Shown here one piece after another: positions 5,491-32,614 of a stretch of 64,000 nucleotides of DNA. The stretch is taken from positions 35,652,001 to 35,716,000 of the forward strand of contig OZ249436.1 in NCBI GenBank assembly GCA_965235115.1, written 5' to 3'. Position 1 is the first letter of the stretch; each line of letters opens with the position of its first letter. The position numbers and the translations under genes were made by a program. This DNA is from Laetmonice hystrix. Its lineage: Eukaryota. A model generated the notes under the pieces. That model ran no database searches, was not told where the DNA came from, and worked only from the letters and a program-made list of their open reading frames with translations.

Positions 5491-6388
5491 TACTAGTCTT
5501 GTTTCATAGAAAGTTACAAATTCCCTCACTCCGATCGAAACATCACATAAACTATAATTTCGAGAAAGTGACATGGTAAGGCAATCTTCATATACAGTGT
5601 CCTGTCGGTCATTATATACTAAGCCTCCACGACGGGGCGTCTTGCATGCCAATGGCTTTTACATTACAAAGGAGAACACTGGCCTATCCGCGACTGCGGA
5701 AGATCACCAAAGGACCGAACAGGATCAGACACCTTCACTGTGACATGTATGACCTTAGAACATTGGCCACCTTTACCCTGCTCAAAGAAGAGCATGCAAG
5801 ATTGCGTGCAGGCATCAGCGTCCTTGCTTATAAAATGAAAGGACACCAGTTGGCATGTTTTTTCATCCTTACAGAATCAGTCCTATGTAATTATTTTCAG
5901 CACCAGGCCTATCTCCTGTGTCATGTCGGATTTTCAAAGGGGCGGAAAGTAGCGGTGTGCAGGTCAGGTTATGTACAACGGTGTTAAATGAGGCTCATTA
6001 GGGCAATGCGTAAAAAGTAGAAACGTTTGAGAAAGACTAAATAATGTTGATACTGCGAGAGCTGGGCAGAGGTTAGACCATCATCTGTACCTCAATACAA
6101 AGCAACAGACAGGGTCCGGTTTTTTTTAATTACGAGAGAAAGAAAACAATCAAATATCTCTGAATCATAACTCCAAGACTATATTGCATAAAAATATTAT
6201 TACCATACATTTGAAAATTATCACAGATCACCATTTAGGCATACTGTACCTCGCTACCAATCGCGGGGTCATTTCCGAGAAAAAACTTCGTGGTCATTTT
6301 CCTCCCAATATCCGAAAAGGTGTTTATAGAGTCAGGAGTTTTCCTCAGGTTGATGAATACGCATTACGCACGACGCACTACGCATTAA

Positions 6389-7435
6389 GCTAGGCATCCA
6401 TAGGTCCGTATATGCGTATGCGTAATGCGTATGCGTCATGTTGAAATCCACGCAGGTGTGTCCGTAGTGCGTATTTCTAGCATCCATAGATGCGTAAAAA
6501 AAATAGTGGTACGTACGCGTATATATAATTTTTTTTATACAAAATTATCAAAATTTCAGTTTCCAGGGAAAAAAGGTAGGCCTAGTATAGGCCTAGGGCC
6601 TATAGATTTAGGCCTATATGGATCTGTTGAAAGTACGAAAATGAAAACTTTGTTGAGAGGGGTGTGAGGCTGACTAGGCCTACCCCTAGCATGCGGCCCA
6701 TAGATGTGACGGGGGGGGGGGGCGGCAGGGCTAATATTAGTAGCCTAGGCCTACTATAGGTCTAATAACTCTTGGCCGCGGCTCTACGATGCAGAGGCGT
6801 AGGAAGCACTTTAAAAGTGGGGGCCAACAAGGCCATGCGCAGAATTTTTCGAGGGGGGATTAGAGTTTGGCGGGGGGGGACTGGCCGAGCGCCGAAGGCG
6901 CGAAGCCATGCTAGGGGAGTCCGGAGGCATGCCCCCCGAAAAATTTTGAAATTTATAATGTAATTTGGTGCATCTTAGAGCACAAAATAAGGTCTGAAAT
7001 GTGAGAAAATACCCTCCTTCTGCATAGACTCCCATAGACTTCCAATGGCAAAAGTCAAGGGGAGGGAAAAGGTGGGGGGGGGCATTTCAAATTGGGGGCC
7101 ATGGCCCCCCTGCCCCCTTTTCCTACGCCCCTGCGATGTGAAGTAGGCCTAGGCCTAGATAGGCCCTATTCGGACTCCTCCCAGGGCCCACAATCTGTCA
7201 TTCATTCCGGGAAAACACCACGTTTCTTACGTCATAGAATATGGAATTCCCCCTGCGTATGCGTAAAAAAAAGGGTCAGGAGGCAATCGCTTGCGTAGTG
7301 CGTAAAACCTTACGCTTCACGCATACGCACTACGTATCTATGGATGCATGTCAATTGAAATCCATTGTGACCTTTTAATTACGCATTACGCTTACGCATT
7401 ACGCATACGCATATACGGATCTATGGATGCCTAGC
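6389..7435. mobile_element. TTAA-flanked MITE with TGCGTA-rich TIRs
   Basis: GCTAGGCATCCATAGGTCCGTATATGCGTATGCGTAATGCGT / near-perfect reverse complement at 7395-7435; TTAA on both sides. Confidence 0.75.
6792..7133. mobile_element. hAT-like MITE with 5-bp TSD, nested in the previous element
   Basis: CAGAGGCGTAGGAA / TTCCTACGCCCCTG, TSD CGATG at 6787-6791 and 7134-7138. Confidence 0.75.
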
Positions 7436-7772
7436 TTAACGCAACAGGCCCATACTACGTACACATGGATTCCTGGCTTTATGATTTTTTGCGGAGGCTT
7501 CAAGGGAGATGTAGGTTCATATATTTTCTCAAAATTCATTTGCAGCACTATTACCATTACCCCCATCCCTTTCACGGCATCCAATAGTTTTAGCGTTATT
7601 ATCCTGGATCCAGTCTTCATTTGAACTTTCTCGGATGTCATGCGTGGGTCATTCCCACTTTTTATCCGATATATAATTCGACAGGTTTACTTTAGTATCA
7701 CTTCTACAACTTGACCTTGCTGCCAATAACTTTGTCTGGGTGTGAATGGGGTGTAAAGAGGAATCGGAATCC

Positions 7773-7857
7773 TTCAGTAGTACCTGGGTAAGTGGACACT
7801 TCAGTAGTACCTGGGTAAGTGGACACTTCAGTAGTACCTGCATGGGTAAGTGGACAT
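7773..7857. repeat. 27-bp tandem repeat x3
   Basis: TTCAGTAGTACCTGGGTAAGTGGACAC. Confidence 0.85.
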
Positions 7858-8922
7858 TCCAGGAAGAAAGGAGGGGGTTTCCGGATATTCCAGGAAGGAA
7901 GGGTGTTTACAGGAAATTCCTGGAAGGTATGACGTCAGAGGATCAAAGGTCGGGATCATTGTGGTTTGAAACGAGGTGACTAGGTCAGAAGAGGCTTATA
8001 TCCTATTTTTAATGACTAATAAGGATCCATCCCCGTGGGTCACCAGGTGCGATATGAATTGAGGACAGAGGGTTGTAAGTCACCCCAAACCCCTTCCTGG
8101 GGTCGATGATGTGCGGAGGAGGAGGAAGAAGAGGATTCTAATCCTGAATAGATCTATAAAAGGCTGATCTGTGCATAAGCTGGATCAATTGACATCTAGA
8201 CTCCCATCAAGCACATGATGTCATTGACACACGCGACTGGACACGCCATTTTGTTAACATGGCCCAGGGGAAACTGCAGGAAGGTCCGGATGCTCACGGG
8301 GTTGGGAAAGTAAAATGCCATGCTGATGACGAGGAGGGGAAAAAGGAAACCCCACCCATAGAATTGGTGACACCCACACAACAGGCGATGGAGATGGCAC
8401 GTTCAAAGCTATAGAAAAAAGAAAACAGGCTGCCGAGAAAAGAAGAACAAAACAAAAAGGAAGAAATAACAAAAACAATGTCCTGGGAGATGGCATTTTC
8501 AATTGTATTTATATGAAATAAAACGTATTTTAATCGGGCTATCCACATAAGCGATTTTACCCCCAGAACGACTTCGTAAGTAGCATCGAACCGACGACAT
8601 AGCGTCAGTCGCCCTGCATGGTGGACATGCTAAGCGCTAATGAAACAATGGCTAAGGGTTAGCACTATTTTGGGGACGCGAAAGTTTGTAGTATGTAGCC
8701 AAAGGCCGTGATATTCTAAGCAAGTTAAAAAATATTTGAACACAATTGGTGCTCAAATAGTTAAGATAGGCCTATAAGCACTTCAGTGCCGGAGCCTGCT
8801 TAGAACCTGCTCCGCTGGTGATGGCGGCCATAGCTCTCTGCTTGGGCTAATCTCTTGGCCTAATCTCACTTTGCTCCAACCACTGCTCTCCAGTTTGGGA
8901 GGAACGAAAAACTGACGCACCT

Positions 8923-9163
8923 ATGGAATACCGGCGACGATATGCGAGATGCGGGACAGTGTGTTTCGGTTAGGGTAAAGGTTAGGCCTAGGGTTAGTGT
9001 TAGTTTTCACTTTAGGGAAAGTTTAGCCCCCAAATTAGGCTATTGTTAAATAGGCACGTGGATCGTGATGTCGGTGTCAATAAGAAACATTCTATGTGCT
9101 AAATTGACACTGTTCGGTTCCATGTCGCTTCTCGCATCTCGCATGTCGTCGCCGGTATTCCAT
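8923..9163. mobile_element. MITE with 8-bp TSD and internal TTAGGG-like repeats
   Basis: TIR ATGGAATACCGGCGACGA.ATGCGAGATGCG; TSD ACGCACCT at 8915-8922 and 9170-9177. Confidence 0.75.
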
Positions 9164-10251
9164 AGGCCTACGCACCTGTTGCGTTGAGCGATACCATGCT
9201 ACATATGGTCTATGAGCGAACGTTGACAGCTTATTTATATAAGCAAAATTTGTTAGAACATAGACGAAAACTACCGATCATAGTAAAGAGGATTGGCTAG
9301 GAATTAAACCTACCGATGTCAGGGGATATATCAGGGTGGACACGGATCTCGGCAAGCTCCAGCCGTGGGTTTCAGCCGCCTGCATTCGTCATGTTGACGG
9401 CACCCGCAGGGCGACTGGGCCGGGCCCTGACCGTTGCTTCGACCGAGAGCGGTTGCTGACAGTGTTAGACTCTTGTGGTCACTTCAGCACAGACCTGTTT
9501 TAGTTGTGACTGTGACTGTGGGACTGACCCCCGTTGATTTTGCCGACCCGCCCCGGCTGCCTTTACTTTAGTCTAGTCTAGCCTAGCCCCTGCATACAAT
9601 AGATTAGCCCCGAAACGTCACTTCCGGCCAGCCCAATAGCAACAAATGGCTGCGCCGCTGAAGCCAGTGATTTTGACACGGTTGTCATGTTCAACATATG
9701 ACTTCTTGGAATGGGGGGATATTTATTTCCAACCACTACTCTGAAAGGTGAGTGCATTTTGAGGCCTTGCAGCTGTCCAAATGTGATTTTTGACTGGTCT
9801 TCTCCTTTAACTTCATAACGTACAGAGATCATAACTCTATAGGCCTATAGGCTATCATTCAGCGGCGTAATCCCCTACATAAAGAATGCATCTTTAAACT
9901 AGCAAAATTTGAAATATACGATTGTAGGCTAGTCCTACTACCATATTTAATAACAAACTTTTGCCAGATAAATAATTTTTTTTTGCAGTACTTTACATTT
10001 TCTTCTGCCGTTGTGATAAAGCACCCATAGAATATATTTTCATGTTTCCTGCACTATTAGAAATCCTACCCCCCTCCGCCCTCCCACAGACAAACAGTAC
10101 ATTTAATCATGTGCCTTGGAGACTTTCAACTTTAGTTTGTGGGCCCTTTTTTCTTTATTTGTGATGGGCCCTTTTGCCATTCGCCCCCCCCCCCCCCCAT
10201 CCTGGTATAATTTAGAACCATCCTTCTGAGGGGAGAAATGGGGGAAGTTAA

Positions 10252-10777
10252 AGGGAGTCGTAAATTTCATTTTTTCGATTTATGGCAGTCTTAGAAACAT
10301 ATGATTCCCATACCTTGGACTCCCAGTAACATCATGTGAGACTGTTATGGCCCAGCGACCAGTATTTAGTCAGGAAAATATGCCAAATCTCTCGCAAATA
10401 CGTAGCTCAGAATTAGCGAACGGCCCACAGGATATTTTAGTTGGCCGCGGTCGGGCGATGATCACGCGTGATCACGTGACTTCCGAGTGTGGAAGGGAAT
10501 CTCCCTCTAGTCTAGCATTGTCCTAAATACCGCATGTACACCCGGAAGTCACGTGATCACGCGTCATCATCGCCCGACCGCGGCCAACTCAAATATCCTG
10601 TGGGCCGCTCGCTAATTCTGAGCTACGTATTTGCGAGAGATTTGGCATATTTTCCTTACTAAATACTGGTCGCTGGGCCATAACAGTCTCACATGATGTT
10701 ACTGGGAGTCCAAGGTATGCGAATCATATGTTTCTAAGACTGCCATAAATCGAAAAAAATGAATTTTACGACTCCCT
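10252..10777. mobile_element. Palindromic Kolobok-like MITE (~230-bp arms)
   Basis: AGGGAGTCGTAAA.TTCAT termini, TTAA TSD, near-perfect arms around a ~60-bp spacer. Confidence 0.85.
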
Positions 10778-10957
10778 TTAATGCATGGCAGTAGGTATAG
10801 TGATATCCCAGAATGGGGCAGAATGGGGCCATCTGGGGCAAAATGGGGTGGGGGTACCCCGTATTGCCCCGAAGGCCATATTCCCAATAACTGGATGACT
10901 GCACGCACACGTCTGTGTCGGCTATACGTGCTGGCGGTGATCAGCCAGTTAGTACAC

Positions 10958-11087
10958 CAATCTAATTAAAATTAGATCTTAGTTATTTCGCATGCGCTCG
11001 AGGTAGGCCCTATGGAGCGCAGGCAGCACTGACACAGCCGAGAGAGACGCGGAATAGGCCTACCAAGATCTAATTTTAATTAGATTG
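10958..11087. mobile_element. MULE-like MITE, copy 1 (short form)
   Basis: TIR CAATCTAATTAAAATTAGATCTT; 10-bp TSD GTTAGTACAC. Confidence 0.8.
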
Positions 11088-11428
11088 GTTAGTACACTAT
11101 AGCGTTTGAAAACAATATAGATTCGGTGAATCCCCCTTGGTGAGACAGTTACGTATGACAACCAGCCCTGATATTTTAAGAAAAAAAATCGAAAAATCGA
11201 TGACAACACTCGCTGTGCAACTTCCGGATTAACTCAAATTGTACAAACTAGATGGCAGCATAAATTGCGTGAGTTATGACAATATTCCGTTTTGCCCATT
11301 CATGATCCCGTTTTGCTCCAGGTTCCTAGATAGATCTATCCGTTCTAACGCGTTAAGCCTAAACTTAAGTAAGATCTTAAGATTGTAGGAACCAGGCCCA
11401 GATGTAGGCCCCTAGTCCGCGTTGTAGT

Positions 11429-11722
11429 CAATCTAATTAAAATTAGATCTTAGTTATTTCGCATGCGCTACATACTAGGATCTAACGGCATCCCGTATGG
11501 GGTCACCTCAGGCTGACCTTTGACCCAGATTCAAGTGTACCGTTGAAAATGCCTACGAGCGCACACCGAAGATTTCGTAGGCGGCTCGCTGATTGGCTGA
11601 ATCCCGAGGTCAACCTGAGGTGACCCCTAATGGGATGTCCTTAGATCTAGGTATGGAGCGCAGCCAGCACCGACACAGCCGAGAGAGACGCGGAATACCA
11701 AGATCTAATTTTAATTAGATTG
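11429..11722. mobile_element. MULE-like MITE, copy 2 (with internal palindrome)
   Basis: same TIR; 9-bp TSD CGTTGTAGT. Confidence 0.8.
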
Positions 11723-11977
11723 CGTTGTAGTAGGCCTATTTCGTAATTCCACCACAAAATATAGGCAGTCAAGTAGGCCTATCACCCTAAACTTAACAAT
11801 CCACCACAGTTTTAAACAACATTCGTCTTTATAGATCGACAAGGCCATATAATCACCCCACCCTCTTTTGGCGGGTTTCTGTGAGGGACCAGATGATGAC
11901 GTCAATTTTGCCAACACCTGCGCTCAGTATGTTGATAGGCTACACTTCACATAGGGAGCTACCCTCCCCCCCCCCCC

Positions 11978-13415
<1,438 letters not shown>

Positions 13416-13468
13416 GGCGCCAAGACTAGGACCAGGAGGTGCCATCAAGATTGACTAGTCCTGCTAAG

Positions 13469-13635
13469 ATGAAGCTGGGTGACACGTTTCCGACGGACCA
13501 CAGCTTTTCTGAGGCATTTGACCAGTACAAGCAGGGTCAGAATGCTGTTTATCGCATATACGCCTCAGAAACTGTGAAGACGTATCTACAAAAACACTCA
13601 GGAAGACAAGACATACGGATCCCAGAGGGGATAAG
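13469..13635 (+). pseudogene. Putative MULE/ZSWIM3-type transposase N-terminal exon fragment
   Basis: MKLGDTFPTDHSFSEAFDQYKQGQNAVYRIYASETV resembles the FAR1/ZSWIM3 N-terminal pattern; ends at ag|gttagt donor; no downstream exon found. Confidence 0.4.
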
Positions 13636-14546
13636 GTTAGTTCATTTCTACATTATTCGACATGATTAACGGTAACTCAGAGCTAGTTTAAAATCATTTT
13701 GCCATGATTGCAAAGGGCTGCAACAAAGCCAGACATTAGCTTTTACAGATGTGATTATGATATCGCCTTATGATATTTATGTACCGGGTACCATAAATAT
13801 TATCGACCCTGTCTAAAACCCTACCCCTATTTCCGTTTTGGTCGTCATCCACCCAAAGTACTTTGGCAGTAGACACTCCGTATATAAAAAGTTGGGATCT
13901 CTGTCATAGGCCCCACGTCCAGGACGGTCTTCGCTATCCACAATATCGGGATTTTGGATGGCATTACACTGGGTGAGGTCAAATATGAGAGTAACTATAC
14001 GCCTGGATTATCCAGGTGTTATATCAGGAAAAAGCGTTAACCTGGACCTTTAACACTAGGCTCCAGTTAACATTTTGACAACACCTTGTTAATACAGGAC
14101 CAGGTCAAATTTCCGATTTATAGAACACTTTCTTAATACCTAGCGTTAACACCCATTTAACTTTTAGATTTGACCTTAGCAGCCACAATATTTGTTGATG
14201 TGCCCAATGTCAATAATGTGTTAATTAACGATACTATCGTTAATTAGCGATAGATCAGTTATAGCGAAGACTTAATCCGCACCGTTTTTATCCGCGCTAA
14301 TAAGTTCCATTTAAGGCGTCAATTACGCTTAATTTCGCATGTTAACGCCCGTTTTACGAGTTATGCAATGGTTTAGCGCGTTTACGTTTACGTTCATTAA
14401 CGTGTTTGACACCTTAACGAGCGCACAAACTTAGTTATGAAACGGACCCGTTTTACATAATATTAGGTCATTATTGCAATGTTTGTATGCATATCTGGTA
14501 TTGTAATTCGCTACTGGAACTCGTTCATAGAAAAGAGAACACTTCA

Positions 14547-16916
14547 GGGTCATTCCATACCAAGTCACCCAGGGCCTCCCAGTTCAAATCATAGATTTTG
14601 ATGAAATTTTACTCATAAAAACGTCGATCCAATTCATGGGGCCATGCAAAATTTTATTTCTGTACTCCAAATAGTTTTCGAGATATGAATTTTTAAGTTG
14701 GTCACCCCTTGGACCCTTTCCAGACTTAAGTTTCGCTTATTTTTGTGCCGATTTTGAGGACCTATAACACCACAATTATAAGAGTGAGCATTCCCATATT
14801 TCATTAACTTACTATCCGTGGTGGGTATATGCTAAATACAAGACAACAGGTTCTTCCTGGGAATATTTTTTCTGTACGAGTGGTGCCAAAATGGCGTTTT
14901 GGCCAATTTTTACCTAAAATATTTAGCTGCGCTACAGGTTTTTTTCCATTTGAAAAGGCATATTTTCTTTAATTTTTCATAGATCTTCACAAAACTTTCA
15001 GGGAATGCTTACTGGCCATATTCCTATATAATCATAGTCCAAAATGGTTCACTTATGCTAAAAAGTCCTAGTTCTTCGACCTTAAGCATAATGATATCCG
15101 ACTTTTTGGAGGAGATGGATATTTCTGAAAGTTTAAAGTGCTCTAGAAAAGTGAGTTTTTAATATTTTTATTTTAAATTTGGCACATGGATAGTCTATGG
15201 AGAGGTCCTTTAGGAAAATACATTACAAGTTTCGAACTTGGATTAGACTTTTAATGAAGTCCTATCAAAAATGGCAAAAAATGAAAAATATGGTATCGGG
15301 CCCCACATAGAAAAAATTGTCACACAAAAGAGATTGAGAGCACAGTCTCCAAACTTTTTTCAAATAATAAGGACATATATGTGTACAGTTGACAAGGAAA
15401 TCAGTAATGTGTTAACTTTCCTTCCAGTCTTTAATGTATGATGAATACAGCCATCTTTTTGACATTCGCAGGTGGGTCATTCCATGTTGAACCAATGGCA
15501 AAAAAGTTGATGTCTCCGAATTTCTTTAAATTTTAACCACATATTTGACAGCTATATTTGGCCACTTCTGCAAAATTGCTAAGCATTTAGATAAAAATTG
15601 TGTCTCTGGGGCCTCCAAATAATATGAGGTAGAGGGTTGTCGACAAAAGCGCACCACTAATTCTGAGTAGGTTTTGAAATACCTGTAACTTTAAGGCTTT
15701 TACATCTAGAAGGCTGAAATTTGCTCTGCTTACAGACAGTTTGGTGTAGAATAAGCCCACAAAAGATTGAAGAGATATATGAAAGGATCTTGGCAGCATA
15801 ATTGTCTGAAAATGGGAAGAAAATAAGTTTTACTAATTCTGGTTGCTCAATAATTTTTTTCGTGCAAATGCTTAGCAATTTTGCAGAGGTGGCCAAATAT
15901 GGCTGTCAAATATGTGGTTAAAATTTAAAGAAATTCGGAGACATCAACTTTTTTGCCATTGGTTCAACATGGAATGACCCACCTGCGAATGTGAAAAAAA
16001 TGGCTGTATTCATCATACATTAAAGACTGGAAAGAAAGCTAGCACATTACTCATTTTTTTGTCAACTGTACACATGTATGTCCTTGTTATTTAAAAAAAG
16101 TTTGGAGACTGTACTCTCAATCCCTTTTGTGTGACAATTTTTTATATGTGGGGCCCGATACCATATTTTTCATTTTTTGCCATTTTTGATAGGACTTCAT
16201 TAAAAATCTAATCCAAGTTCGAAACTTGTAATGTATTTTCCTAAAGGACCTCTCCATAGACTATCCATGTGCCAAATTTAAAATAAAAATATTAAAAACT
16301 CACTTTTCTAGAGCACTTTAAACTTACAGAAATATCCATCTCCTCCAAAAAGTCGGATATCATTATGCTTAAGGTCGAAGAACTAGGACTTTTTAGCATA
16401 AGTGAACCATTTTGGACTATGACTATATCGGAATATGGCCAGTAAGCATTCCCTGAAAGTTTTGTGAAGATCTATAAAGAATTAAAGAAAATATGCCTTT
16501 TCAAATGGAAAAAACCCTGTTGCGCAGCTAAATATTTTAGGTAAAAATTGGCCAAAACGCCATTTTGGCACCACTCGTACAGAATAAATATTCCCAGGAT
16601 GAACCTGTTGTCTTGTATTTTGCAAATACCCACCACGGATAGTAAGTTAATGAAATATGGGAATGCTCACTCTTATAATTGTGCTGTTATAGGTCCTCAA
16701 AATCGGCACAAAAATAAGCGAAACTTAAGTCTGAAAAGGGTCCAAGGGGTGACCAATTTAAAAATTCATATCTCGAAAACTATTTGGAGTACAAAAATAA
16801 AATTTTGCATGGCCCCATGAATTGGATCAAAGTTTTTATGAGTAAAATTTCATCAAAATCTATGATTTGAACTGGGAAAATTTCCTGTTTCTGGGTGATT
16901 TGGTATGGAATGACCC
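14547..16916. mobile_element. Large foldback non-autonomous DNA transposon (Sola2-like), ~1.04-kb arms
   Basis: GGGTCATTCCATACCAA termini, 4-bp TSD TTCA (14543-14546, 16917-16920), arms ~14547-15588 and ~15866-16916. Confidence 0.85.
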
Positions 16917-17165
16917 TTCAGTCTTCACTGTTTAAGGGCCATCGAAGTATTTCTACACCAAAAACAAGTAATATGACTACCTTCATCTGTTGGCATTGTA
17001 TAAATATCGTGTGCTTCTTGAAAGTATTCAAAATAAATGTAAAAAAAATCCGTCACTTACGTTCACTACATGGTTGTGAAATGTATACATCCCATTTGAG
17101 TATCTTCTTGAAATTTTCACAGTATAGATGCCCCTCGCCTATACCTTTCATTTCCACTCCCTCAA

Positions 17166-17427: not shown

Positions 17428-17588
17428 TCCACTCCCTCAATGTAGGCCTACTGTTTGCATGGGTACTAGGCCAGCCAGTACCATGTTGGGACTTCTCACT
17501 GTACTGTTTGGCCTCCCCTACTGTTTGGCCTCACTGTACTGTTTGGCCTCACTGTACTGATCTGTCAAATCGACTTCAAAAGTATTAA

Positions 17589-17928
17589 AGGTGCTATTCG
17601 TGAACAAAAATTCAATTTTTTTATTTTTAATTTTGTTGACGTTTATGTGATCCCACCTATCATGGAAATAGATTCACAACAAAGGAAATCAAAATTTTCC
17701 ATGGATAACGGCACAAATGGGGCTCTCTCAGAAGGCCTGTGGAGACCCTGACACGCCCCACCATAGGAAATGGCTCTATCTCGGTGCGCACCGAGATAGG
17801 TTTCAAATGCTGCACACAAACTAATAGAAGGTTTATCAGGCCAATGGTATCGGTAGAAATTGTTTCTAGTACTATGTGCACAATGTATGATAGGAGAAAT
17901 GCCATTCTGTGCGAGACGAATAGCACCT
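17589..17928. mobile_element. Kolobok-like MITE family B, copy 1
   Basis: TIR AGGTGCTATTCGT, TTAA TSD; near-identical inverted copy at 36209-36550. Confidence 0.85.
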
Positions 17929-19584
17929 TTAAAAAAAGTCCAAAACACCGGGCACCGAGTTGGTAAGTAGCACAAATGACAACCCTTGAATATGTAGACA
18001 TAGTAATATTTGTGTGGAAATGCTGTAAAAAAAGGTGTAAATTGACATGCGGAAGTGGCAGGTCTGACAGTCTGCTCGTTTCAGCAGCAAAATCACGTGA
18101 ATTTGTGCCGAACGAACATGGTAGGCTATGGAACCGCATAACGTACGAGACGTTAAATATCACGTAACTACATATAGGATATCAAGAAAGATGTCATTGG
18201 TTGTATACGGGTGTGTATATAGGGCCTACATTAACGAGTAGAAGGGGAAAATGATCATCGTGGTCATCACAGTAACAGAATATAACCTTTTATTTGATTG
18301 TTTAATCAGTTTGACCTTGCGCTTAATACATAACCGCAAAACCGCAATGCGGTCGCCCAAGATAAAGTCTTTCTCGCAGTCAACACCACTGCCATCAAAA
18401 AAACATGTGGCACCGTTGTCGTTGATGGTTTGGAGACGGGTAACATTACCGGCTAGATGCCATGTCTCTTCAAACATAGGCCAAAAGAAAAGTTTCGTTT
18501 CTTGTCCTTTCATATAAAAAAAAATTGGTGCGGTGACGCGGTTTTCTTCATCTTTCTTTTTTTGGGGATGCAACCAGACAACGGCCGGTTCTTCGAATGC
18601 AATGGGTACATGAGGAAATCTTGAAGAAAAAACTCATGCAATGATGTTCAATGTTTTCATTAAAGAATGGGTAAAACTCACATAAAAAGCAATAAGACTA
18701 ACAGAAAAACGCCAACGCCAAACCGTTAACAGGTTGGCACAGTCAAGGTGCCCTAAGACCATCAGATCAAGACAGAATCCACTAGGCAAAACTTTGACTA
18801 TGATTTCGCGCGTATAGATAGACTGCAGAACTGAACAATGCGAGAACTTGCACAGGAGTACGCAGCCTCAGGATTCTGCAGTACCATGCACAAGGAGCGG
18901 TGAAGGCATCTTTGCGGAAGAACATGTACTACCTATAAAATTTCCTGATTGTCGATAGAAAAATACCAACTGTAAAAGTTATTTACCGTGGAACCCAAAC
19001 TTTCCTATTGTTAAATAGTCTCTGAAATATTAGGGACGGATCGAGGTTCTCAGGAAAGGTATGCTCAAATTAAGGAAGGATTTCTTAAATTGAAGCGTAA
19101 TATTTTACCCTAACTTTTTCGATAAAAAGCTTTTTTTCTTGGTACTATGATAAACAATATGGAGTTAATTTTTATTAAAAAGGGTACAGTAGTGCAACCA
19201 GCCAGGTCTACGTACATACATAGAAAACGATAAAAGAACCAATTCATTGGGCAGATGGGTCAACTGTAGGTGTTTTGACCCAGGCCTATAGCTATAGACC
19301 TCGGTGTTTTGTAGGCCTATGAAATTCGGTTGGTCAGCGTTCATACCGGGTCTGTCTATTTACCGAAATCACCCCAGGGACATACCGAAATCCAACCTAC
19401 ATACCGAAATCACCGCTGAGAAACACCGAAATCCAACCTAAATACCGAAATCACCGCTGAGAAATACCGAAATCCAACAATTTTATGTCGTTGAATACGT
19501 TTATGTTTCTGTTTTCTAGTTTTTAACCGACATGGTTAAAATAAAAATATTTAAATATTCAAAAATCTTCATTGTACGGCAGTT

Positions 19585-22274
19585 GGGTCATTCCATGTCA
19601 AATCGACCAGGGGCTCCCGGGTGACCATCTCCAATTTTTTTCTTATTTGGCATGTAGTTAGATCTATATATCTGATATATTTCTGAAATTCTTCTTCCAA
19701 ATTCCCAACGGTTCCCATGTTATACCCCCATGAGTTTGGGTGGGGGTACCCCTGAAAAAAACGCTTCTTTTTCTGAGCCGTTTTTAGAGGGCTACCATTC
19801 AGAAATTATAAGAGCTGGCAACTTGTATTTTTGTCCACTGAAACATTAATATGTAGAGACGAGGAAAAAGTAATAACATTTTATTTCTGTGCTTATTCCT
19901 TGGAGCACCATGCCCCCCAAAATAGAAAAAACACATCTTGTAACTTCTTGATCTTTGGCGATTTGATTTATGGCTATATGAGGTGCATGTAGACACCAAA
20001 ATAATCTTCCAAAAATAGACACAGGTGGCGCCACTAGTGGCCAAAGTTAGCCGATCGCTAAATATGACCCATTTTGAGGGACCATTTTGCCTATGTTGCC
20101 AAGGTGGAAGAGCATTGTGATATTTTTTCCTTGATAAAGCACACTTTGGACATTAATGAAAACTAAGTCCCTAATCCTTTCCATACTTCCTTCCCTGTCA
20201 AATAATTTTTCAAATAATATCCATTTTAGTAAAGTTCACGCTGTGACGAGATATGAGGTACATTGTTTTTTATATCATTAAATTTTTATTATTTGCCACA
20301 GAATTCTTGTAAATAGCTTAAACTGTTGGTCTTTTGAAGATTTTTGTATTTAAATTAATTAATTAATTAATTATAAATAAATTTATAATTTATTTTTATA
20401 TTTTATTTTATATTATTATATTTTATGATTTTAAGTTATTAAATCAATAATTTAATTAATTAAGTAAATTAATTAATTAAAATAAATTTATAAATTTATT
20501 TATAATTAATTAATTAACTAATTTAAAGACAAAAATCTACAAAAGACCAACAGTTTAGGATATACTCCCCCCAAGAATATAAATACTCCAATCTCCCCCC
20601 GAGAATATGAATACTCCAATCTCCCCCCGAGAATATAAATACTCCAATCTCCCCCCATAAAATTTTTATTATTTGCCACAGAATTCTTGTAAATAGCTTA
20701 AACTGTTGGTCTTTTGAAGATTTTTGTATTTAAATTAATTATTAAAGGGGCATGCTATGAAACACGTTTTTGAGGATTTCTGGCAATTATCCAACATGAC
20801 CGTGTACTAGGGATCCAAGTAAATAATCCTACCACAGCATTTTGTCCTCCGACGTGTTTTCGCTGCGTATGCAGCACAAGTAGGTTCTATACGACCAAAC
20901 CTATAGATTTCTCCCGATGGCACATCTCCCGCCATAATTTGGCGGACAACCCCCCATCAACCCGTGTAATCGCGTACTGCGTCACATCCTGCATGTGCAC
21001 TGTCTGCATGTGCTTAGTCGCGTGCTTTGCTTAGTTGTAAACAATTCAGCAGTGGCACTCGATCGCCCGGCATCAGAAATAAATATTTTACGAAATCGGC
21101 AGAGAAGCGGGCAAGGGAGCTTAATAAACTTCGATTTCTCACGCAAAATGAAACTGATAAGTCTGTCTTTGTTTACTAAGCAATTTTAATGAAGGATCTC
21201 TTTATAAAAACAGCAAAAGTTCTATGAAATACCGATTTTTAACGTTTCCTCATAATATGCCCCTTTAAAGTAATTAATTAATCATAAATAAATTTATAAT
21301 TTATTTTTATATTTTATTGTATATTATTATATTTTATGATTTTAAGTTATTAAATCAATAATTTAATTAATGAAGTAAATTGATTAATTAAAATAAATTT
21401 ATAAATTTATTTATAATTAATTAATTAACTAATTAATTTAAAGACAAAAATCTACAAAAGACCAACAGTTTAGGATATTTACCACTTTCAAGAATTCTGT
21501 GGCAAATAATAAAAATTTTATGATATAAAAACAACGTACCTCGTATCTCGTCACAGCGTGAATTTTACTAAAATGGATATTATTTGAAAAATTATTTGAC
21601 AGGGAAGGAAGTATGGAAGGGATTAGGGACTTAGTTTTCTTTAATGTCCAAAATGTGCTTTATCAAGGAAAAAATATCACAATGCTCTTCCACCTTGGCA
21701 ACATAGGCAAAATGGCCCCTCAAAATGGGTCATATTTAGCGATCGGCCAACTTTGGCCACTAGTGGCGCCACCTGTGTCTATTTTTGGAAGATTATTTTG
21801 GTGTCTACATGCACCTCATATAGCCATAAATCAAATCGCCAAAGATCAAGAAGTTACAAGAAATAACCTTCTCATGAAAAATGTTTGAATATTGAATTTT
21901 TTTTTCTCCGATGTGTTTTTTTCTATTTTGGGGGGCATGGTGCTCCAAGGAATAAGCGTAGAAATAAAATGTTATTGCTTTTTCCTCGTCTCTACATATT
22001 GAAGTTTCAGTGGGAGAAAATACAAGTTGCCAGCTCTTACAGTTTCTGAATGGTAGCCCTCTAAAAATGGCTCAGAATTAAACGTGCTTTGTTCAGGGGT
22101 ACCCCCACCCTCGCTTATCGGGGTGTAACTCGGAGACCGTTGGGTATTTTGGAGCAAAATTTTAGGATTGTACTGCAAATACACAGGTCTAACGGCATGC
22201 CAAATTTGAAAAAAATCGAAGATGGTCCCCCGGGAAGATTTTCCAAAATTGGTCGATTTGACATGGAATGACCC
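19585..22274. mobile_element. Large foldback non-autonomous DNA transposon (Sola2-like), second family
   Basis: GGGTCATTCCATGTCAAATCGACCA termini, 4-bp TSD AGTT; long inverted arms; AT-rich duplicated centre. Confidence 0.85.
20746..21264. mobile_element. Kolobok-like MITE family A, nested in the foldback element
   Basis: AGGGGCAT..ATGA TIR, TTAA TSD; other copies at 32084-32614, 28101-28510, 24564-24672. Confidence 0.85.
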
Positions 22275-22322
22275 AGTTCCATTTGGAAGAACATTGAGCC
22301 AAATGCTGCCATTAATATAAAG

Positions 22323-23296
22323 TTACCTTCCACTCGCTGTGACATACTTAGGAGGTTTACTGGGCACTAATGGCTCGTTCAAGTCCTGTAACAAACCCTC
22401 AACAATACGGTCATGCTCAGACAGTGCATGCTTCTTCTTCTTTTTTGGTGCAGAAATTCTACGAATGCCGGAAACACTGACGTTGGAAGAGTCTATGTCA
22501 TTTTCTAGTTCTGAATCCTCTGACCATTGTGACACATGACTTTTGGCTGAATTTGCTCGATCACCTTTCTCAAGAAAATGACCAGATGTAGTGACAGTTG
22601 TGACAGCAGTGTGTGGCTCGTCTCTGCCCTCTTCAGACCGGTCTGACGTTTGACTAGTGGCTGCTCGACCTCTGTCGTACGCGGACTGACCAGAATCATC
22701 AACTTCCAGTGAAGCTACTCCCGAGTCTCTACTGGTTGACGAGGATTCACGGTAATCTGCGCCCGACGACCCCAAAACACATCTCCTGTCACTTAAGGAT
22801 TTGTTCTTTTTCTTTTTCTTTTTCTGAAATTGTTTCATTTCCTTGGCTATATTCTTCATGTCGGAGATGTCTGTATGAGGTGGCTGGGTGGCGGCCCACC
22901 GTTCAGTAGCCGTTGGCTGATCCATCGCTGAAGTGTGTTGGTCCACTGACCACTGGTCATAGTCTGTGTACTCGCTCAACGACACAGGCCCACCGTGACG
23001 GTCATCTGGAGATAGTTTGTTACAGTGCCGGTTGGCACTGCCAGACCTGCAGCTGCTGGCACTCCCTGTCCGTGACTTGCACGTTCTCAGTGCCTCTATT
23101 GTTTCATCCCTTTGTTTGAGCTTCATTTCCAAGTCTACGATTCTGTTCTCCTGTTCTGACACACGACCAGAGAGTTCTAGAACGAGGGCAGTTCGATCAT
23201 TGGTAGAATTGGCTGATTGGTCTGGTACTGGTCCGACGTCAGGCTCGGCTTGACCGGGTGACTCTACCCTGGTTACTGTCATACTTTTCAGTTTCT
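22323..23296 (-). CDS. CCDC192-like coding exon 5 (coiled coil plus long Ser-rich tail with poly-Lys tracts)
   Basis: ttttttcag| acceptor; contains the longest ORF in the window (319 aa). Confidence 0.85.
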
Positions 23297-26200
23297 CTGA
23301 AAAAATGTGAAAGAAAATATTTGTATTGTAATTTTTTATGGACCAGTTCGACTTCGAAATGTTGCAAAACTTTAGGAACAGAGAGCTGTCTCATTGAACA
23401 ATAATAAAACAAAAATATATGAATACATAAATAATTGAGTGAATGAATCGGTGAAGGAATGAATGAGTGGATGAATGAATGATTAACCACCACAATATTA
23501 CCATGGCCGTGAGTTGATCTGATGCTATTAACGGGAAGGACCGCCTTTTTTGGTCGACCATCCCCAAGGTAACTGTAAACAACACTGCCGTGAAATGACC
23601 AAAATAAGCAAGTCCAACTTTCATCAAAATCGACTTAAGTGTAAATTTGGATTCAGGGAAGTAAGTCCTATCTATCAATGGGTGTATTTCTGCTAAACAT
23701 CCTTCTATGAAGCTATCAGTCACATGACAGAAGCAAGCATGTCCACCCAAATGCACTGTAGAGACAACTTGTTTATGTCCATTTCTCGAAACTTGAACTT
23801 TTGAACTTGCTTCCTTTTGTCATTTCACGGCAGAACAGGTGACATGGCGAGAGGCGGTAGTAGCTACTCGCGGTGTCTAAGGTGTCATGTATGTATACGA
23901 TGGATAACAACAATAAGGCAGGAGGTGGGGTAAAACACAAAAGAAACCGGAGCAGGGCGAGACGGGGCGCGAATGTCCGGTCACGTGACACCCTGGCAAC
24001 GCCTGCATGGGTCTGGTGAATACAAACGCCGTTGCCCCCTCGCTTCATTCAAATACATAGCACTTGATAATGGTGACGAACTTTGGTGTTAATTACTGCA
24101 AGATCTGTCCTCATACGTGAAAAAAGCGGTAGACTTGGTTTATCACTTTCCCAAGCAACTCAATGTCACCGGAGTGGAGAGCTAAATGGCCCAGTTTATT
24201 TAGATCTAGGCTAATAGGAAGGGTTTTAACATGGCAAAGAACTGAAAGCCGCGGAACACTGTGTTCGTCACATTTTCTTACTGACGTCTATACCCACGTT
24301 TGCAGTGAGGAATCTGTGGAATGTTGCAGGCCTTGTTCATTTTATGAGATGGTTTAGGTCTAATTTTTGATTTAGGTCTTTGTTTTTATCGCAGATTAAG
24401 GGTATAGGAGTCTAGTTTATGACTATATCTGCCGTTAAGAGTAGGCAACAGCTTTAAATTCCCCCTCTTCTTTCTTTCTTACTCTTACAGAGCCATATAG
24501 CCTAGCCTAGGCCTTCTTATAACATCTAAAATTAAAAGAAAACTTCTATTGTCTGGATATTAAAGGGGCATATTATGAGGAAACGTGAAAAATCTGTATT
24601 TCAAAGAACTTTTGCTGTTTTTATAAAGAGATCCTTCATTAAAATTGCTTGGTAAACAAAGAGAGACTTATCTACTAGTAAGCTAGTACCTAATTTAGAA
24701 AAATAGAGGAGTATGTTACATTTTTGTCTCATTGGTAACAAGATATTTCTCACCTATTAGTGTATCATTCTCCTCCTTTAATTTGGAAACTTCATCATTT
24801 GACTCAAAAACACGAAGAGAAGATTCGTGCTTTGCCTCAGCCAGCTGGGAGTGAACGTGTCTCAACTTCTTCTTGTATTTCGTTTTCTATGATTAAATAC
24901 AGTAAAGATTAAAAAATAGATTAAAATAAAAAGAGATATAGGTTCATATCTTTTCAGGTTAAATATTGTAAAGAACCCCATGAACTGCATGACTGTTTTA
25001 TTGAAATCGGATTTTTTATAAATCACAGAAATAAAAAAAAGAGAGTAGATCTTACAAATTTATGTATACTTTTATGGATCACTTTCCTACCAATGATCAA
25101 ACCCAATGTAATATTGTATTAGGATAATGAACTGAATATACATGTATGTATAACTGAGTATAACACTATAAGAGGAGAATGTCAAAATACCAGTTTAGTA
25201 ATCTCGTCCTGGATGAGCTTCGTTTCCTTCTCCAGTTTCTGGATGTACTGGTCCTTGGCAGCTACGGTTTTAGTACACTGGGTAGGAGCAGCAGCAATGC
25301 TTCTCCTGTGCTGCTCCTCCAGCTGTTCCTCAACCGCCTGCAGCTGCTCAGCAAGGTCCATGTTCTCGCTCTCCAGGGTCCCCATCTTCAATCAATCAAC
25401 CCATTTCACTGTCAGACATATGAAATGGCCACCAACCAGACGGTCTCCATGGTATGCCAGAAGTGATTTTGGAAATGACTAGCTGGGGCGGTCTTACTCT
25501 TACTAACGATGATCCCAGGAAAATCCCACCAAAGTCCCCAGACCAGGGATATCCCTGTTGTGAGGTATCTTACTAAAAAGTCCCTCGATTGAAACAGTGT
25601 TAGGGAGATGCCCCCGATTTGAGCCTAACAACATGATGAAAATAAAAATGATTTTATTTTCATAACGGTATTAAGCAGAAAATTTGAACATCACTTTTGA
25701 ACAAATGTCATGACATTCTGTATGAATCTTGTTATCAACTGATGGTTGACAATATGAGGTAGACATTGATGTTGACTAATACATAGGAAAAGAGGTTAGT
25801 CCTGAAATACACTCTGCTGTTGAAAACATTACAGGAATAGCTGTGTAACGGAATTATGAGTAACGGAATTACATGTAAACGTATCTTGATCACTGTCTTG
25901 ATGTACAATTCACCAAAAACCCAATTTAAGAAACTAATTGCCAAATCGCAAGGGCCCTGAACACAACTGAATATTAAAACAACAAATTCTATGGCTTACT
26001 GCAGTTTACCTGATTTTCCAGTTCAGTTACTCGTGACTGAAGCTTAAAAATAATCTGTCTGCTCTCCGCCAGCTGGCTCTTATAACTGTAAACAGGATCA
26101 TCTCCCGCTGGCTCAGACCGGGCACGACCCGCCGTAGGCAGACTGCATGATGTGGGCCGGACAAGTCTGTGTGACATTATAATAAATGGAATGAACCCTT

Positions 26201-27603
26201 GTTAAATACAACAGAGTTTCAGTTTACCTAAATGTAAAATATGATTTACAGTTCATCGGTTGCAGCATCATTGTTCACTATGGGTTTAACCCCTTAAGGA
26301 TGGGTGATGCCTTGAGGCATTCCCGGGCAGTGGTCGAGGCATTTCTAGGCTGGGACCGCATGATGTGCGTCAGAGCCCATTGTGTATAGAGCGCTAGCGC
26401 AGTGCCGTGACGTAACGTCACAATTGAGTGCTCAAATCCCTACTTTTGTCTAAAATATGGATAATTTTTCTGGAGATGACAGTGATTGGGACCATGTGAG
26501 GCAATCCGTTATCACATGTGGCCTGCCAGAATGCCCCTGCCCACATGCACTCAATTGTTATGTCATCACTAGTGCACGACGGCAATGGGCCCGTCTCGAA
26601 AGGGTTACTTAAAAACAATTTTCAGTGTGTGGCCCCAGATCTCAGCACGAGGACCTTGACGTGTTGTTCCTTCTCATTCCTTGTGCTGTGATCTGGGGCC
26701 CTGCCCTTTTTGCCCCAAATTTTCCAGGAAATGACCCAGCTGTCGTCACACCCCTCGAAGAACAGGGCTGCCAAGTCTCCCGCATTTGGCGGATGACACC
26801 AGCATTTAAACCCAATCACTCGCTCACCCGCCCGCAGGTCACTTCTCGGCAAAAAATCACCTGCATCATTGCACCATTTTATGGTAAATTTTAAAAATTT
26901 TTCCAGGGGAGCATGCCCCCGGGCCCCCATAGCATTGCTTTTCACGCCGTTGGCGCTCGCCATCACCCACAAGCCTTTCACAAAAACTTGGCAGCCCTGA
27001 AAGAAGCAGTTCAGTCATTAACATACAATTCATACAACATAACATACAATTACAAACATAGCTTCACTAATTATAGGCCTACACGGCTATAGCATAGCCT
27101 AGATCTACTCATTTTTAATTAATTTTAACACTGACGGCGTGTCTTAGAGAAACCCCGAGCAATTATGTTGGCCTATACCTCTAAAACTCTCATTCAAGAG
27201 CATGAGCTTTAATTACTAGATCTCTATGAGTAATGCAAACAATCATGAATTGCTTTTCTGTGCCCCCCTTTTGCTTTAGTGAAACCTGGATCCGCCAGTG
27301 ACATATCTACATACTCGATACTGTGATACATAAGTTGATCAATCTAGATCTACAGCATCAATTTCAGTTACTAATACTATTTTGGCGCTACACCGGGCCT
27401 CACCTGTCAGGTCCGCAAATAGGAGTCTGTGAAGGTTGCCGGCTGAGAGTGCCAATAGGACTAGGAGGGACCTCACCCCCGGCGTTAGTCGAGATCCACG
27501 ATGTTGTTTTCATCGACGTCGGAGCCGAGAGTGCGCCATTTTTTCTAGGGCTGGGCGTGTCACGGAGTATTGGTTTTATATTACTGCTTGTCCCTGATCC
27601 CAT
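22323..27603 (-). CDS. CCDC192: Coiled-coil protein, CCDC192-like (~552 aa, 5 coding exons)
   Basis: Exons 27404-27603, 26010-26166, 25191-25385, 24754-24886, 22323-23296, GT-AG and phase-consistent (1659 nt). Starts MGSGTS. Segments TVAAKDQYIQKLEKE, KTKYKKKLRHVHSQLA and DRTALVLELSGRVSEQENRIVDLEMKL resemble recalled vertebrate CCDC192. The gene is well supported; the symbol needs BLAST. The stop overlaps a possible donor (ag|gtaact). Confidence 0.75.
24564..24672. mobile_element. Kolobok-like MITE family A fragment
   Basis: reverse-oriented end of the family A sequence after TTAA. Confidence 0.7.
24754..24886 (-). CDS. CCDC192-like coding exon 4
   Basis: atag| acceptor, g|gtgaga donor; KTKYKKKLRH...EENDTLI. 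Confidence 0.8.
25191..25385 (-). CDS. CCDC192-like coding exon 3 (coiled coil)
   Basis: aag| acceptor, |gtattt donor, heptad-rich. Confidence 0.8.
26010..26166 (-). CDS. CCDC192-like coding exon 2
   Basis: cacag| acceptor, cag|gtaaac donor. Confidence 0.8.
26763..26999. mobile_element. hAT-like MITE
   Basis: CAGGGCTGCCAAGT / ACTTGGCAGCCCTG; imperfect 6-bp flank duplication GAAGAA/AAAGAA. Confidence 0.65.
27404..27603 (-). CDS. CCDC192-like coding exon 1
   Basis: ATG at 27603, ag|gtgagg donor, phase 2. Confidence 0.75.
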
Positions 27604-27699
27604 AATAATTTACTGCACACAGAATCCCTAAAAACCGTTTAAGTTACCACAGAACGCATTATTTACTTCGAGGACGACAGCTATCGGGCACCTGCCGGA

Positions 27700-27745
27700 A
27701 TCATGGTATGGCGTCCATGACGTCATGGCAACCAAACAACTTCCG
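27700..27745 (-). promoter_or_regulatory. Candidate CCDC192-like promoter motifs: CRE palindrome overlapping an RFX X-box half-site, plus ETS site
   Basis: TGACGTCA 27718-27725, CATGGCAAC 27724-27732, ACTTCCG nearby; CpG-rich; putative 79-nt 5'UTR intron 27613-27691. Confidence 0.4.
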
Positions 27746-28100
27746 TTCCTTCAGCGGCGAAGGTGCGGCGAAGGTAGGCCTAGACCTCTTTGGGTAGACT
27801 CGACGAGTAGCGGCGAGCGACCTCTAGCGAGAAAAAGGGTCTGGTGATCGAGACTACGGCGAAGGGTGCCTTCAGATGATGCCTTCTAGCTCAAACCTTC
27901 TTGTTTATTTAGAAGATAAAAGACACATGTAAGAAAGTATATCTATAAAATATGTAACACTAAATAATGTTTGTAACCATTAAATTAATATAAAACAAAA
28001 CATCACGACTTCCGGGATGTCTACGAAAACGTCAGGTGGCGCCACCGGACCAGCGTTTGGGTTGTGGACTTGGAAAGTTCTGTGTCCCCGACTCCATTAA

Positions 28101-28510
28101 AGGGGCATGCCATAAAACACGTTTTTGAGGATTGCCGGCAATTATCCAACGTGACCGTGTACTAGGGATCCTAGTAAATAATCCTACCACAGCATTTTGT
28201 CCTCGGACGTGTTTTCGCTGCGTACGCAGCACAAGTAGGTTCTATACGACCAAACCTCGATAGATTTCTCCCGATAGCACATCTCCCGCCATAATTTGGT
28301 AGACAACCTCCCATCAACCCGTGTAATTGCATACTGTGTCACATCCTGTGTGTGAACTCTCTGCATGTGCTTAGTCACGTGCTTTGCTTAGTTGTAAACA
28401 ATTCAGCAGTGGCACTTGAACGCCCGGCATCAGAATGCCACCCAAAAAATATTTTACGAAATCGGCAGAGAAGCGGGTAAGGGAGCTTAATAAACTTCAA
28501 TTTCTCACGT
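28101..28510. mobile_element. Kolobok-like MITE family A, truncated copy
   Basis: homologous to the first ~400 bp of 20746-21264, begins after TTAA. Confidence 0.8.
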
Positions 28511-29701
28511 AAACACGTATTGTTTAACATAAATAGGCCTAGAGGCCTAGGTTATGATAGACTCTAGGCCTATTTAGAAAAAACGATCTGGCGAATAATA
28601 AAGATAGGCCTAGATGACCTTTCTTATGTAGGCCCTATAGGCCTACCTATAGATCTAGGCCTAGGCCTATACTTATAGCCTAGCCTACACACCATCGACA
28701 TCAGTTCGGTTTTCCTCGTTTTTGTTTTTTCACCGTGAGCAGGGTGAGCTGAGCTGAGCAAGGTTGAGCCACACTTGAAATGCTATGCCACATGCAAACA
28801 TCGTAGGCTACGTGGTACAGGGAGGGCAGACCTGGCTAAAGTTCTGCATGACCGTAGGCCTATACAAGAACGTAGGCCTACTGGTTAAATAGGACTTCTC
28901 GAGATTAACCCAATCCGTGGATTTAGGCTACACCTATTCCCAGTCGGCAGAACGTCCGAATTTTCTAGTCCTTTCTCCTTTTTGGAGAATGGCCCTTATT
29001 CCGCTGGCCAAGCACAGAACATGACTACTAGGCCTACAATCTAGGCTAGACAGGCCGGTAGCCAGCCTTCCAGGTGGGGGGGGGGGGGGTCTGGACTTCG
29101 ATGGGCGGAACAAGGTAGGGCCTAGGCCCTATGGTTGGGCAGTCTAGGACAGGGCCATAGCTAGAAATTTCTGAGTTGGGGGGGGGGGCAGTCATGGGTG
29201 GATCTAGGAGAAGGCGAAGGCTCCAAGACATTAGCGGGGGGTCTGGGGGCCCTCCCCCAGAAAAAATTGGAAATTACAGGGCCAAATACGCGTTTTCCTG
29301 GCATCTGGAAAATAAATCCAAGGTTTTCCAGAGCCTATCCAGCACTAAAGGGTGAAACAAAATCTTAGGGATGGGCAACTGGGGGGGGGGGGGGGGGTAA
29401 GTTAAACCATTCTTGGGATTAACTTGCATACGGCCATAATATTAAATGTGCATTCATCAAATGTTATTGGGTCTTCTCAAAACTTCAAAATAGGCCTATC
29501 GGGGCACCTTGTTTTACCAGTAGGCCTATAACTCCAGAATCACTAAAATATGATAAAATCTGGCGAACAGTCGCTATGACTAGGCACTCTAAAAGGTTTA
29601 TTTATTTCACAATTATTACAACTTAGTGAATCAATTTTACATTCACAGACAAATGTGTTCTTTCGTTTACAATGGGAGACTCTATCACAGATCTGTGACT
29701 T

Positions 29702-30020
29702 CCGCTTGGCGGCAGCACTATCGCCCCGGGCCACCTTTGCTACACATTAGTATGACCATAGACATGTTCTATGGTATGACCATAGATGACGTTAGATATG
29801 ACGAAATGCCAATCTGTAGAAGTTCCGTAGTGATATTTGTTATGAAATATTGTGGTGCGTTTATGAGCTCTTCAACATGTGGAGCCTATGGCGTTATTAG
29901 CCTATTTTTCATGACAAATAGTCTAAACGCATCCTGCCAGATTAGCATTTTGTTGTCCTATCTAACGTCATGCTAATGTGTCGCCAAGAAGACCGGGGCG
30001 ACAGTGCTGCCGCCACGTGG
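29702..30020. mobile_element. Unclassified MITE
   Basis: inverted ends GGCGGCAGCACT.TCGCCCCGG; no clear TSD. Confidence 0.5.
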
Positions 30021-32083: not shown

Positions 32084-32614
32084 AGGGGCATGCTATGAAA
32101 CACGTTTTTTTAGATTTCCGGCAATTATCCAACATGATCATGTACTAGGGATCCAAGCAAATAATCCTACCACAGCATTTTGTCCTCCGACGTGTTTTCG
32201 CTGCGTATGCAGCACAAGTAGATTCTATACGACCAAACCTATAGATTTCTCCCGATAGCACATCTCCCGCCATAATTTGCTATAGACAACCTCCCATCAA
32301 CCCGTGTAATTGCATACTGTGTCACATCCAGCGTCTGCACTCTCTGCATGTGATTAGTCACGTGCTTCGTTTAGTTGTGAACAATTCAGCAGTTGCACTC
32401 GATTGTCCGGCATCAGAATGCCACCCAAAAAATATTTTACGAAATCGGCAGAAAAGCGGGCAAGGGAGCTTCATAAACTTCGATTTGTCACGCAAAATGA
32501 AACTGATAACTGATGTCTTTGTTTACCAAGCAATATTAATGAAGAATCTCTTGATGAAAACAGCAAAAGTTCTTTGAAATACCGATTTCTCACGTTTCCT
32601 CATAATATGCCCCT
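32084..32614. mobile_element. Kolobok-like MITE family A, full copy
   Basis: TIRs and TTAA TSD intact. Confidence 0.85.

Follow-up and report, generated by a model that had tools for sequence, protein, structure and literature searches.

TA-bounded GGCC words in Laetmonice hystrix DNA, probably the excision footprints of a cut-and-paste transposon

Results

Features of the locus

The window analysed here is a 64,000-nucleotide (64 kb) stretch of Laetmonice hystrix contig OZ249436.1, animal DNA with many small inverted-repeat elements. The minus strand carries exons of an SLC12 transporter gene from roughly 35.0 to 52.0 kb. Three further stretches, at 27404-27603 (minus strand), 25123-25482 and 22326-23390 (minus strand), probably belong to one gene, which opens with MGSG and includes a 355-codon open frame whose coiled-coil match is weak. 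No family was assigned to it; a search of the ESM Atlas with the 317-residue frame 22326-23276 returned nothing at ≥0.9. Large fold-back elements occupy 14531-16933 and 19584-22275; each has arms roughly 1 kb long, and their ends are related and begin with GGGTCATTCCA. Elements flanked by TTAA whose ends are AGG or AAGG, which we take to be Kolobok-like, are found at 10249-10780, 17586-17931, 20743-21267 and 32081-32617. By summed contig depth, very high-copy repeats lie at 9586-9812 (about 380,000-410,000) and 10494-10720 (220,000-270,000), compared with 33-78 in unique bins. The first of these had looked like a promoter by eye, an impression that we rejected because its very high depth marks it as a repeat.

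The features that concern us are TA-bounded words with a GGCC-type middle, called scar words or scars below, together with the elements that carry them (no strand is assigned unless stated):

6577-7168: scar cluster from word counts, with serial scars sharing a TA (6588, 6741, 7144)
8767-8774: TAGGCCTA scar in a high-copy repeat, six bases absent from other copies
8922-9164: IS3EU-like non-autonomous element with TA...TA ends, read with a 6-bp duplication at 8916-8921 and 9171-9176
8983-8990: TAGGCCTA in a TTAGGG-like run, by insertion or two substitutions
9163-9170: TAGGCCTA scar on the terminal TA of the IS3EU-like element, between the element end and the duplication
9840-9854: adjacent TAGGCCTA and TAGGCTA, from the word count
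10958-11087: MITE copy 1, with a 10-bp target duplication at 10948-10957 and 11088-11097
11004-11012: TAGGCCCTA in MITE copy 1, plain TA in copy 2; the shared left flank is only about 3 bases
11055-11062: TAGGCCTA scar in the right arm of MITE copy 1, a 6-base gap relative to copy 2
11429-11722: MITE copy 2, with a 9-bp target duplication at 11420-11428 and 11723-11731 and a plain TA at 11696-11697
11731-11781: two further TAGGCCTA (11731 and 11774), from the word count
27074-30592: densest scar field, with 16 of the 35 TAGGCCTA
27404-27603, minus strand: candidate first coding exon, starting MGSGTSS and ending at a GT donor
11 sites, e.g. 8149, 11331, 24201, 27100, 27345 and 28650: TAGATCTA, from the window word count

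A TA-bounded word and its length series are in excess

The first-pass annotation had proposed that the palindrome TAGGCCTA, in which GGCC stands between two TA dinucleotides, is enriched here, and had named a Markov background as the check that could overturn this. The excess withstood that check. The word occurs 35 times in 64 kb; 100 shuffles gave a mean of 0.60 and never more than 3, Markov expectations are 1.05 and 1.52 at orders 2 and 3, and the word is the commonest of the 256 palindromic 8-mers of the window. What the annotation had overlooked were its shorter and longer sister words: TAGGCTA/TAGCCTA was observed 23 times (6.45 expected), the nine-letter pair TAGGCCCTA/TAGGGCCTA, with a five-letter middle, seven times (0.54 expected) and TAGGCCCCTA once (0.14 expected). 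Excess scar words amount to about 0.9 per kb across the 64 kb. No excess was seen in the window for TAGCTA (9 versus 9.9 expected) or TAGGTA (30 versus 32.3), nor for TAGGGCCCTA and TAGGCGCCTA in the window and metagenome word counts. One-mismatch neighbours of TAGGCCTA number 28 where 19.6 are expected, barely above chance, so the words are young, with most copies still intact, and not an old set in decay.

Canonical CAG-type words are also above chance in the window (TACAGTA/TACTGTA, 21 versus 11.1; TACATGTA, 8 versus 1.9). The word TAGATCTA occurs 11 times (0.95 expected), many copies lying beside GGCC scars; the metagenome loci described below hold two copies with 2.6 expected, and no shorter sister word is enriched. 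It is possibly a second, lineage-specific scar. The pair TATAAATA/TATTTATA occurs 13 times in the window (5.9 expected). At 9232-9239 the window reads TATTTATA, and repeat copies in public contigs skip six bases at 9232 (4, 4 and 5 contigs), so this site is another type of TA-bounded six-base insertion.

Scar-free copies identify the word as an insertion

The annotation had cited two copies of one MITE as evidence that a TA had become TAGGCCTA. This comparison holds: a clean six-base gap separates 11055-11062 in copy 1 from the TA at 11696-11697 in copy 2, with unchanged flanks. The short form is the one matched by the left arm of the MITE itself; it is thus the older, and the long form is derived by insertion. 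Copy 1 is presumably Mutator-like, judged by the length of its 10-bp duplication, and summed contig depth reaches 12,000-37,000 in the bin 10948-11174, compared with 33-78 in the unique bins of 5500-6180. Copy 2 holds a nested palindromic insert near 11470-11660, which some contig joints skip. The longer word at 11004-11012 is suggestive of a further before/after site.

In the second example, TAGGCCTA lies at the junction between an element end and its target duplication. The element has the ends TATGG...CCATA (8922-9164), is 243 bases long and is non-coding. As the scar at 9163-9170 parts the element end from the duplication, it arose after the element, and public contigs contain a paralogous empty site without it; in one public contig another copy of the element ends in CCATA and continues with unrelated sequence. 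The insertion claimed at this junction is therefore upheld. The 8-bp duplication claimed with it is likely mistaken: 8-bp and 6-bp readings fit the letters equally, and the scar sits on a TA either way, and the duplication is probably better read as the 6 bp of an IS3EU-like element. TA...TA ends with a 6-bp target duplication are the pattern described for IS3EU (PMC10045372, in excerpt). The suggestion that GGCCTA is ancestral and the short forms are deletions runs against the insertion polarity of both examples.

The third example is ambiguous. The word is present at 8983-8990 in the TTAGGG-like run; its GGCCTA is two substitutions away from GGGTTA, the 6-base unit of the surrounding run, so two substitutions suffice, and no copy without GGCCTA was seen among the contig matches listed. 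Similar runs decaying into TAGGCCTA occur in metagenome loci L049 and L101.

We compared public contigs over 5500-12300, in three runs that represent one sample, possibly the source of the window itself. The site at 8767 is an additional before/after site: its six bases are absent in 3, 7 and 7 contigs of the three runs, counting scar-free contigs only; in two of the runs, 36 and 26 contigs cease to match at 8768 and continue with the sequence beyond the scar. Neither 11055 nor 8983 is among the public-contig indel sites listed. One contig record over 9784-10118, a span that includes the scars at 9840 and 9848, in which gap positions are not given, has nine gap letters and a net five fewer letters. 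A single public contig crosses both the 11731 and 11774 scars without difference. Three before/after sites with unchanged flanks (11055, 9163 and 8767) were thus found, with polarity for two. A scar-free partner inside the window exists for one of 65 scar words (the control gave one weak match in 250), so for most of them we infer their status as scars.

The same contigs, from one sample, contain empty and scar forms in paralogues and no full form. No site polymorphic between alleles was resolved, and the earlier description of the responsible element as very active is not supported as a statement of present activity.

Scars avoid a flanking T and cluster

The TA sites that carry TAGGCCTA differ in context from their neighbours: a T flanks the TA at 5 of 70 flank positions, compared with 863 of 2876 (30%) for the remaining TA sites in those regions (Fisher p = 7e-6). 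The seven-letter words (13% of 46 positions) and the nine-letter words (0 of 14) lean the same way. Scars are also clustered, 18 of 34 pairs of neighbouring TAGGCCTA lying within 200 bases (mean 3.7, maximum 11, in 10,000 draws of TA sites), and, as a raw count, 7 of the 65 scar words have a TA in common with the following one. Beyond 31 kb, where 51% of the TA sites lie, there is one of the 35 TAGGCCTA, and the SLC12 gene body likewise holds one. The densest field lies 0.9-1.5 kb upstream of the candidate first exon at 27404-27603 (minus strand), and within 28501-29150 scars contribute about 100 of 650 bases (about 15%). A link between this field and a promoter is suggested by that one predicted gene start.

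The same series recurs in metagenome contigs

A pattern search with the three words returned at least 120 metagenome loci and 17 viral loci. Flanks were available for 80 of these 120 and lacking for 40; after removal of 12 tandem-repeat loci (by eye), four loci with GC content outside 0.36-0.51 and L075, 63 were kept. Counted with the seed match and 300 bases on each side removed (242,798 bases), these loci, which were chosen for the word and so prove that such DNA exists rather than how frequent it is, contain TAGGCCTA 126 times versus 2.46 expected. TAGGCTA/TAGCCTA occurs 87 times (22.9 expected), the nine-letter pair 14 times (1.03) and TAGGCCCCTA/TAGGGGCCTA, with the middles GGCCCC/GGGGCC, four times (0.22). 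A copy of TAGGCCTA outside the seed is present in 50 of the 63. A looser set of 74 loci with a 100-base mask gave 161 versus 3.29. The flanking T is rare here too (36 of 252, p = 1e-8), and before/after pairs exist among the loci (L016/L120 and L030/L053). In the 14 viral loci that remained of the 17 once three duplicates had been removed, selected by the same pattern, TAGGCCTA occurs three times with 1.85 expected.

The metagenome loci encode domains of animal type (7tm_1, SOCS box, SRCR, reverse transcriptase); related hosts may be the source of many of these loci. BLAST of the window against the 63 loci gave no match at E 1e-5. Several scar words coexist in these loci, including TACCGGTA (11 versus 1.67) and TACATGTA (28 versus 5.5). 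As general background, words of the GGCC series are common in the non-coding DNA of echinoderms and fish.

Search for a parent element

The annotation had seen no parent element in the window, and our search agrees: no TA-flanked GG...CC element with inverted ends of its own was found in the window or in the 120 metagenome loci, and Pfam scans of 150 of 236 window frames and 70 of 175 locus frames detected no DDE transposase. No site offered a trio of full, empty and scar forms. The interval 6391-7433 (TA, GGC...GCC, TA) was rejected as parent: its inverted repeat extends outside the TA and unique contigs start only at 7455, so it represents inner bases of a larger element. Among 11 permissive TA-GG...CC-TA pairs, eight match at 17 or fewer of 20 bases, and in the three best (19-20 of 20) the inverted repeat extends further outward; all were set aside. 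No animal TA-duplicating family with GG ends appears in the pogo table (first 30 of 99 GGG places and five of five GGC places) or in part 4 of 6 of the DD37E/MS table. A sub-threshold ZSWIM3_N match at 13430-13666, beside a 50-bp tandem array (12326-13514), is possibly a relic of a Mutator-like transposase.

Discussion

Excision footprints as the best explanation

We consider it likely that the words were left behind by the excision of a cut-and-paste transposon that targets TA and has GG...CC ends, acting as Tc1/mariner elements do when they leave footprints. The first of the two origins offered by the annotation, this reading fits the insertion polarity, a middle that is constant and not derived from the flanks, the length series, the target bias and the serial scars. 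Such an element would enter at a TA and duplicate it; on exit, staggered cuts a few bases inside the ends would leave short tails on both flanks, which end-joining would close as TA, terminal bases, TA. With ends that begin GG and finish CC, the commonest seal would be GGCC, and GGC/GCC, GGCCC/GGGCC and the rare GGCCCC/GGGGCC would be slipped or trimmed seals.

Three tail structures may be envisaged. Four-base GGCC tails would anneal perfectly, and slips would yield the observed set; ends made of a G run, cut for the most part two bases in, would give nearly the same set; three-base GGC tails would account for the first three classes, but their six-letter form should be GGCGCC. The GGCGCC middle was found in none of the 63 metagenome loci, while the GGCCCC type was found four times there and once in the window, a small count. 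Self-complementary GGCC tails or G-run ends match the series better than three-base GGC tails do.

Several properties of Tc1/mariner footprints recur here: a net insertion that leaves a TA on both sides, unchanged flanks, and a fixed middle with minor length variants. Tc1/mariner excision leaves 3' tails, and its footprints at a former TA consist of the first or last 2-4 element bases, fixed, between two TA, such as TACAGTA/TACTGTA for Sleeping Beauty (PMC6943129, PMC5224488, both in excerpt). As far as the excerpts go, a main product with shorter and longer variants and a preference for a purine before the TA are shared as well, whereas the Tc1/mariner middle is derived from CAG and ours is GGCC or GGC. 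Again within those excerpts, excision assays contrast with the natural, dense field found here (about 0.9 excess words per kb), for which no parent was found. We infer that a transposon once passed through every site, and likewise the end sequence and the family of that transposon; as neither parent nor transposase was found in the window or the loci and no animal family matched in the table parts covered, the likeness to Tc1/mariner is one of working rather than of established membership.

Minos leaves a footprint of six bases (four terminal bases plus TA), and the net six-base insertion at TA is alike; unlike the case of Minos, GGCC tails, being palindromic, would pair without mismatch and leave a single word rather than two mirror words. 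In Trichoplax, a TA-bounded ACAGT motif is in large non-coding excess near gene starts, a likeness to our series; the word is another one and, in the excerpt available, is called a microsatellite without a footprint reading (PMC2871265).

Alternative explanations

Footprints from outside the IS630-Tc1-mariner group, or in another register, are a minor possibility. For example, an AGG...CCT element might insert between T and A without duplication and leave three bases per end. The before/after pairs fix the net six bases and not the register, and the window contains many TTAA elements with AGG ends (10249-10780, 17586-17931, 20743-21267). Ends that often start with GG are found in PIF/Harbinger and Zator, the latter making 3-bp duplications at its targets, unlike the T-avoiding TA here. 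ISL2EU ends usually start with GG too, but its target is A|AT|T, with duplication of the AT, and that of Harbinger TWA (PMC4482050, in excerpt). A TTAA or TWA target requires a T before or an A after the TA, the very context that scars avoid (5 of 70 versus 30%), and we rejected a PIF/Harbinger footprint on this ground. An ISL2EU footprint was rejected since the before/after pairs show a TA site rather than A|AT|T.

It is improbable that TAGGCCTA is an old or selected motif, such as a protein-binding site or a slippage-expanded unit, with the short forms produced by deletion between TA copies. The strong clustering (18 of 34 versus 3.7), the cluster upstream of a candidate gene start and the TTAGGG-like runs that decay into the word all speak for it, as does the regulatory role proposed for the comparable Trichoplax motif (PMC2871265, in excerpt). 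Against it stand the insertion polarity at the MITE and the IS3EU-like element, the position of scars inside unrelated repeats and at an element end, and the youth of the words indicated by their one-mismatch neighbours (28 versus 19.6).

The second origin offered by the annotation, hairpin opening or host repair that stamps GGCC into TA breaks without any transposon, we regard as very improbable. It would account for the missing parent and for the recurrence of the word in loci unrelated in sequence to the window. Hairpin-type footprints (hAT, CACTA, RAG-like) copy flanking bases inverted at the junction; here, at positions 1-4, complementary pairs on the two sides of the scar are as frequent as chance predicts (10 of 35 versus 10.4, and 101 of 356 versus 108.3), and flanks are unchanged in the before/after pairs, which leaves hairpin opening without the expected mark. 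The middle stays constant while the flanks differ, and we know of no untemplated additions that form one fixed word. A sequencing or assembly artefact is practically negligible: the three contig runs are one sample, possibly the window's source, but a public contig crosses two scars unchanged, and the series and its flank bias recur across many separate metagenome assemblies.

Meaning of the scars

The footprint mechanism itself is already known. For the GGCC series we found no published description in the literature searched, whose coverage left out most subscription journals and Repbase/Dfam. Among the matches listed for papers with TAGGCCTA, none is on scars by title or abstract, and the sole co-match for footprint and transposition concerns R2 retrotransposons; a paper on the trout RAG 3' region reportedly contains all three words.

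More speculatively, and with considerable doubt, the scars could stem from an uncatalogued TA-targeting transposase lineage, present in several animal groups, whose self-complementary GGCC ends re-anneal perfectly. Each scar doubles the TA target, so this element would return to the same stretches, open ones near gene starts, and its scars would rank among the main sources of small insertions in regulatory DNA, locally about 15% of bases.

Returning to excision footprints in general, these are textbook matter in laboratory assays and seldom tallied as a natural class of mutation. Scars of the kind described here would mislead motif searches for regulatory sites. They would also record past transposon traffic that left no element behind, and they predict how the ends should read in an element that has yet to be assigned to a family.
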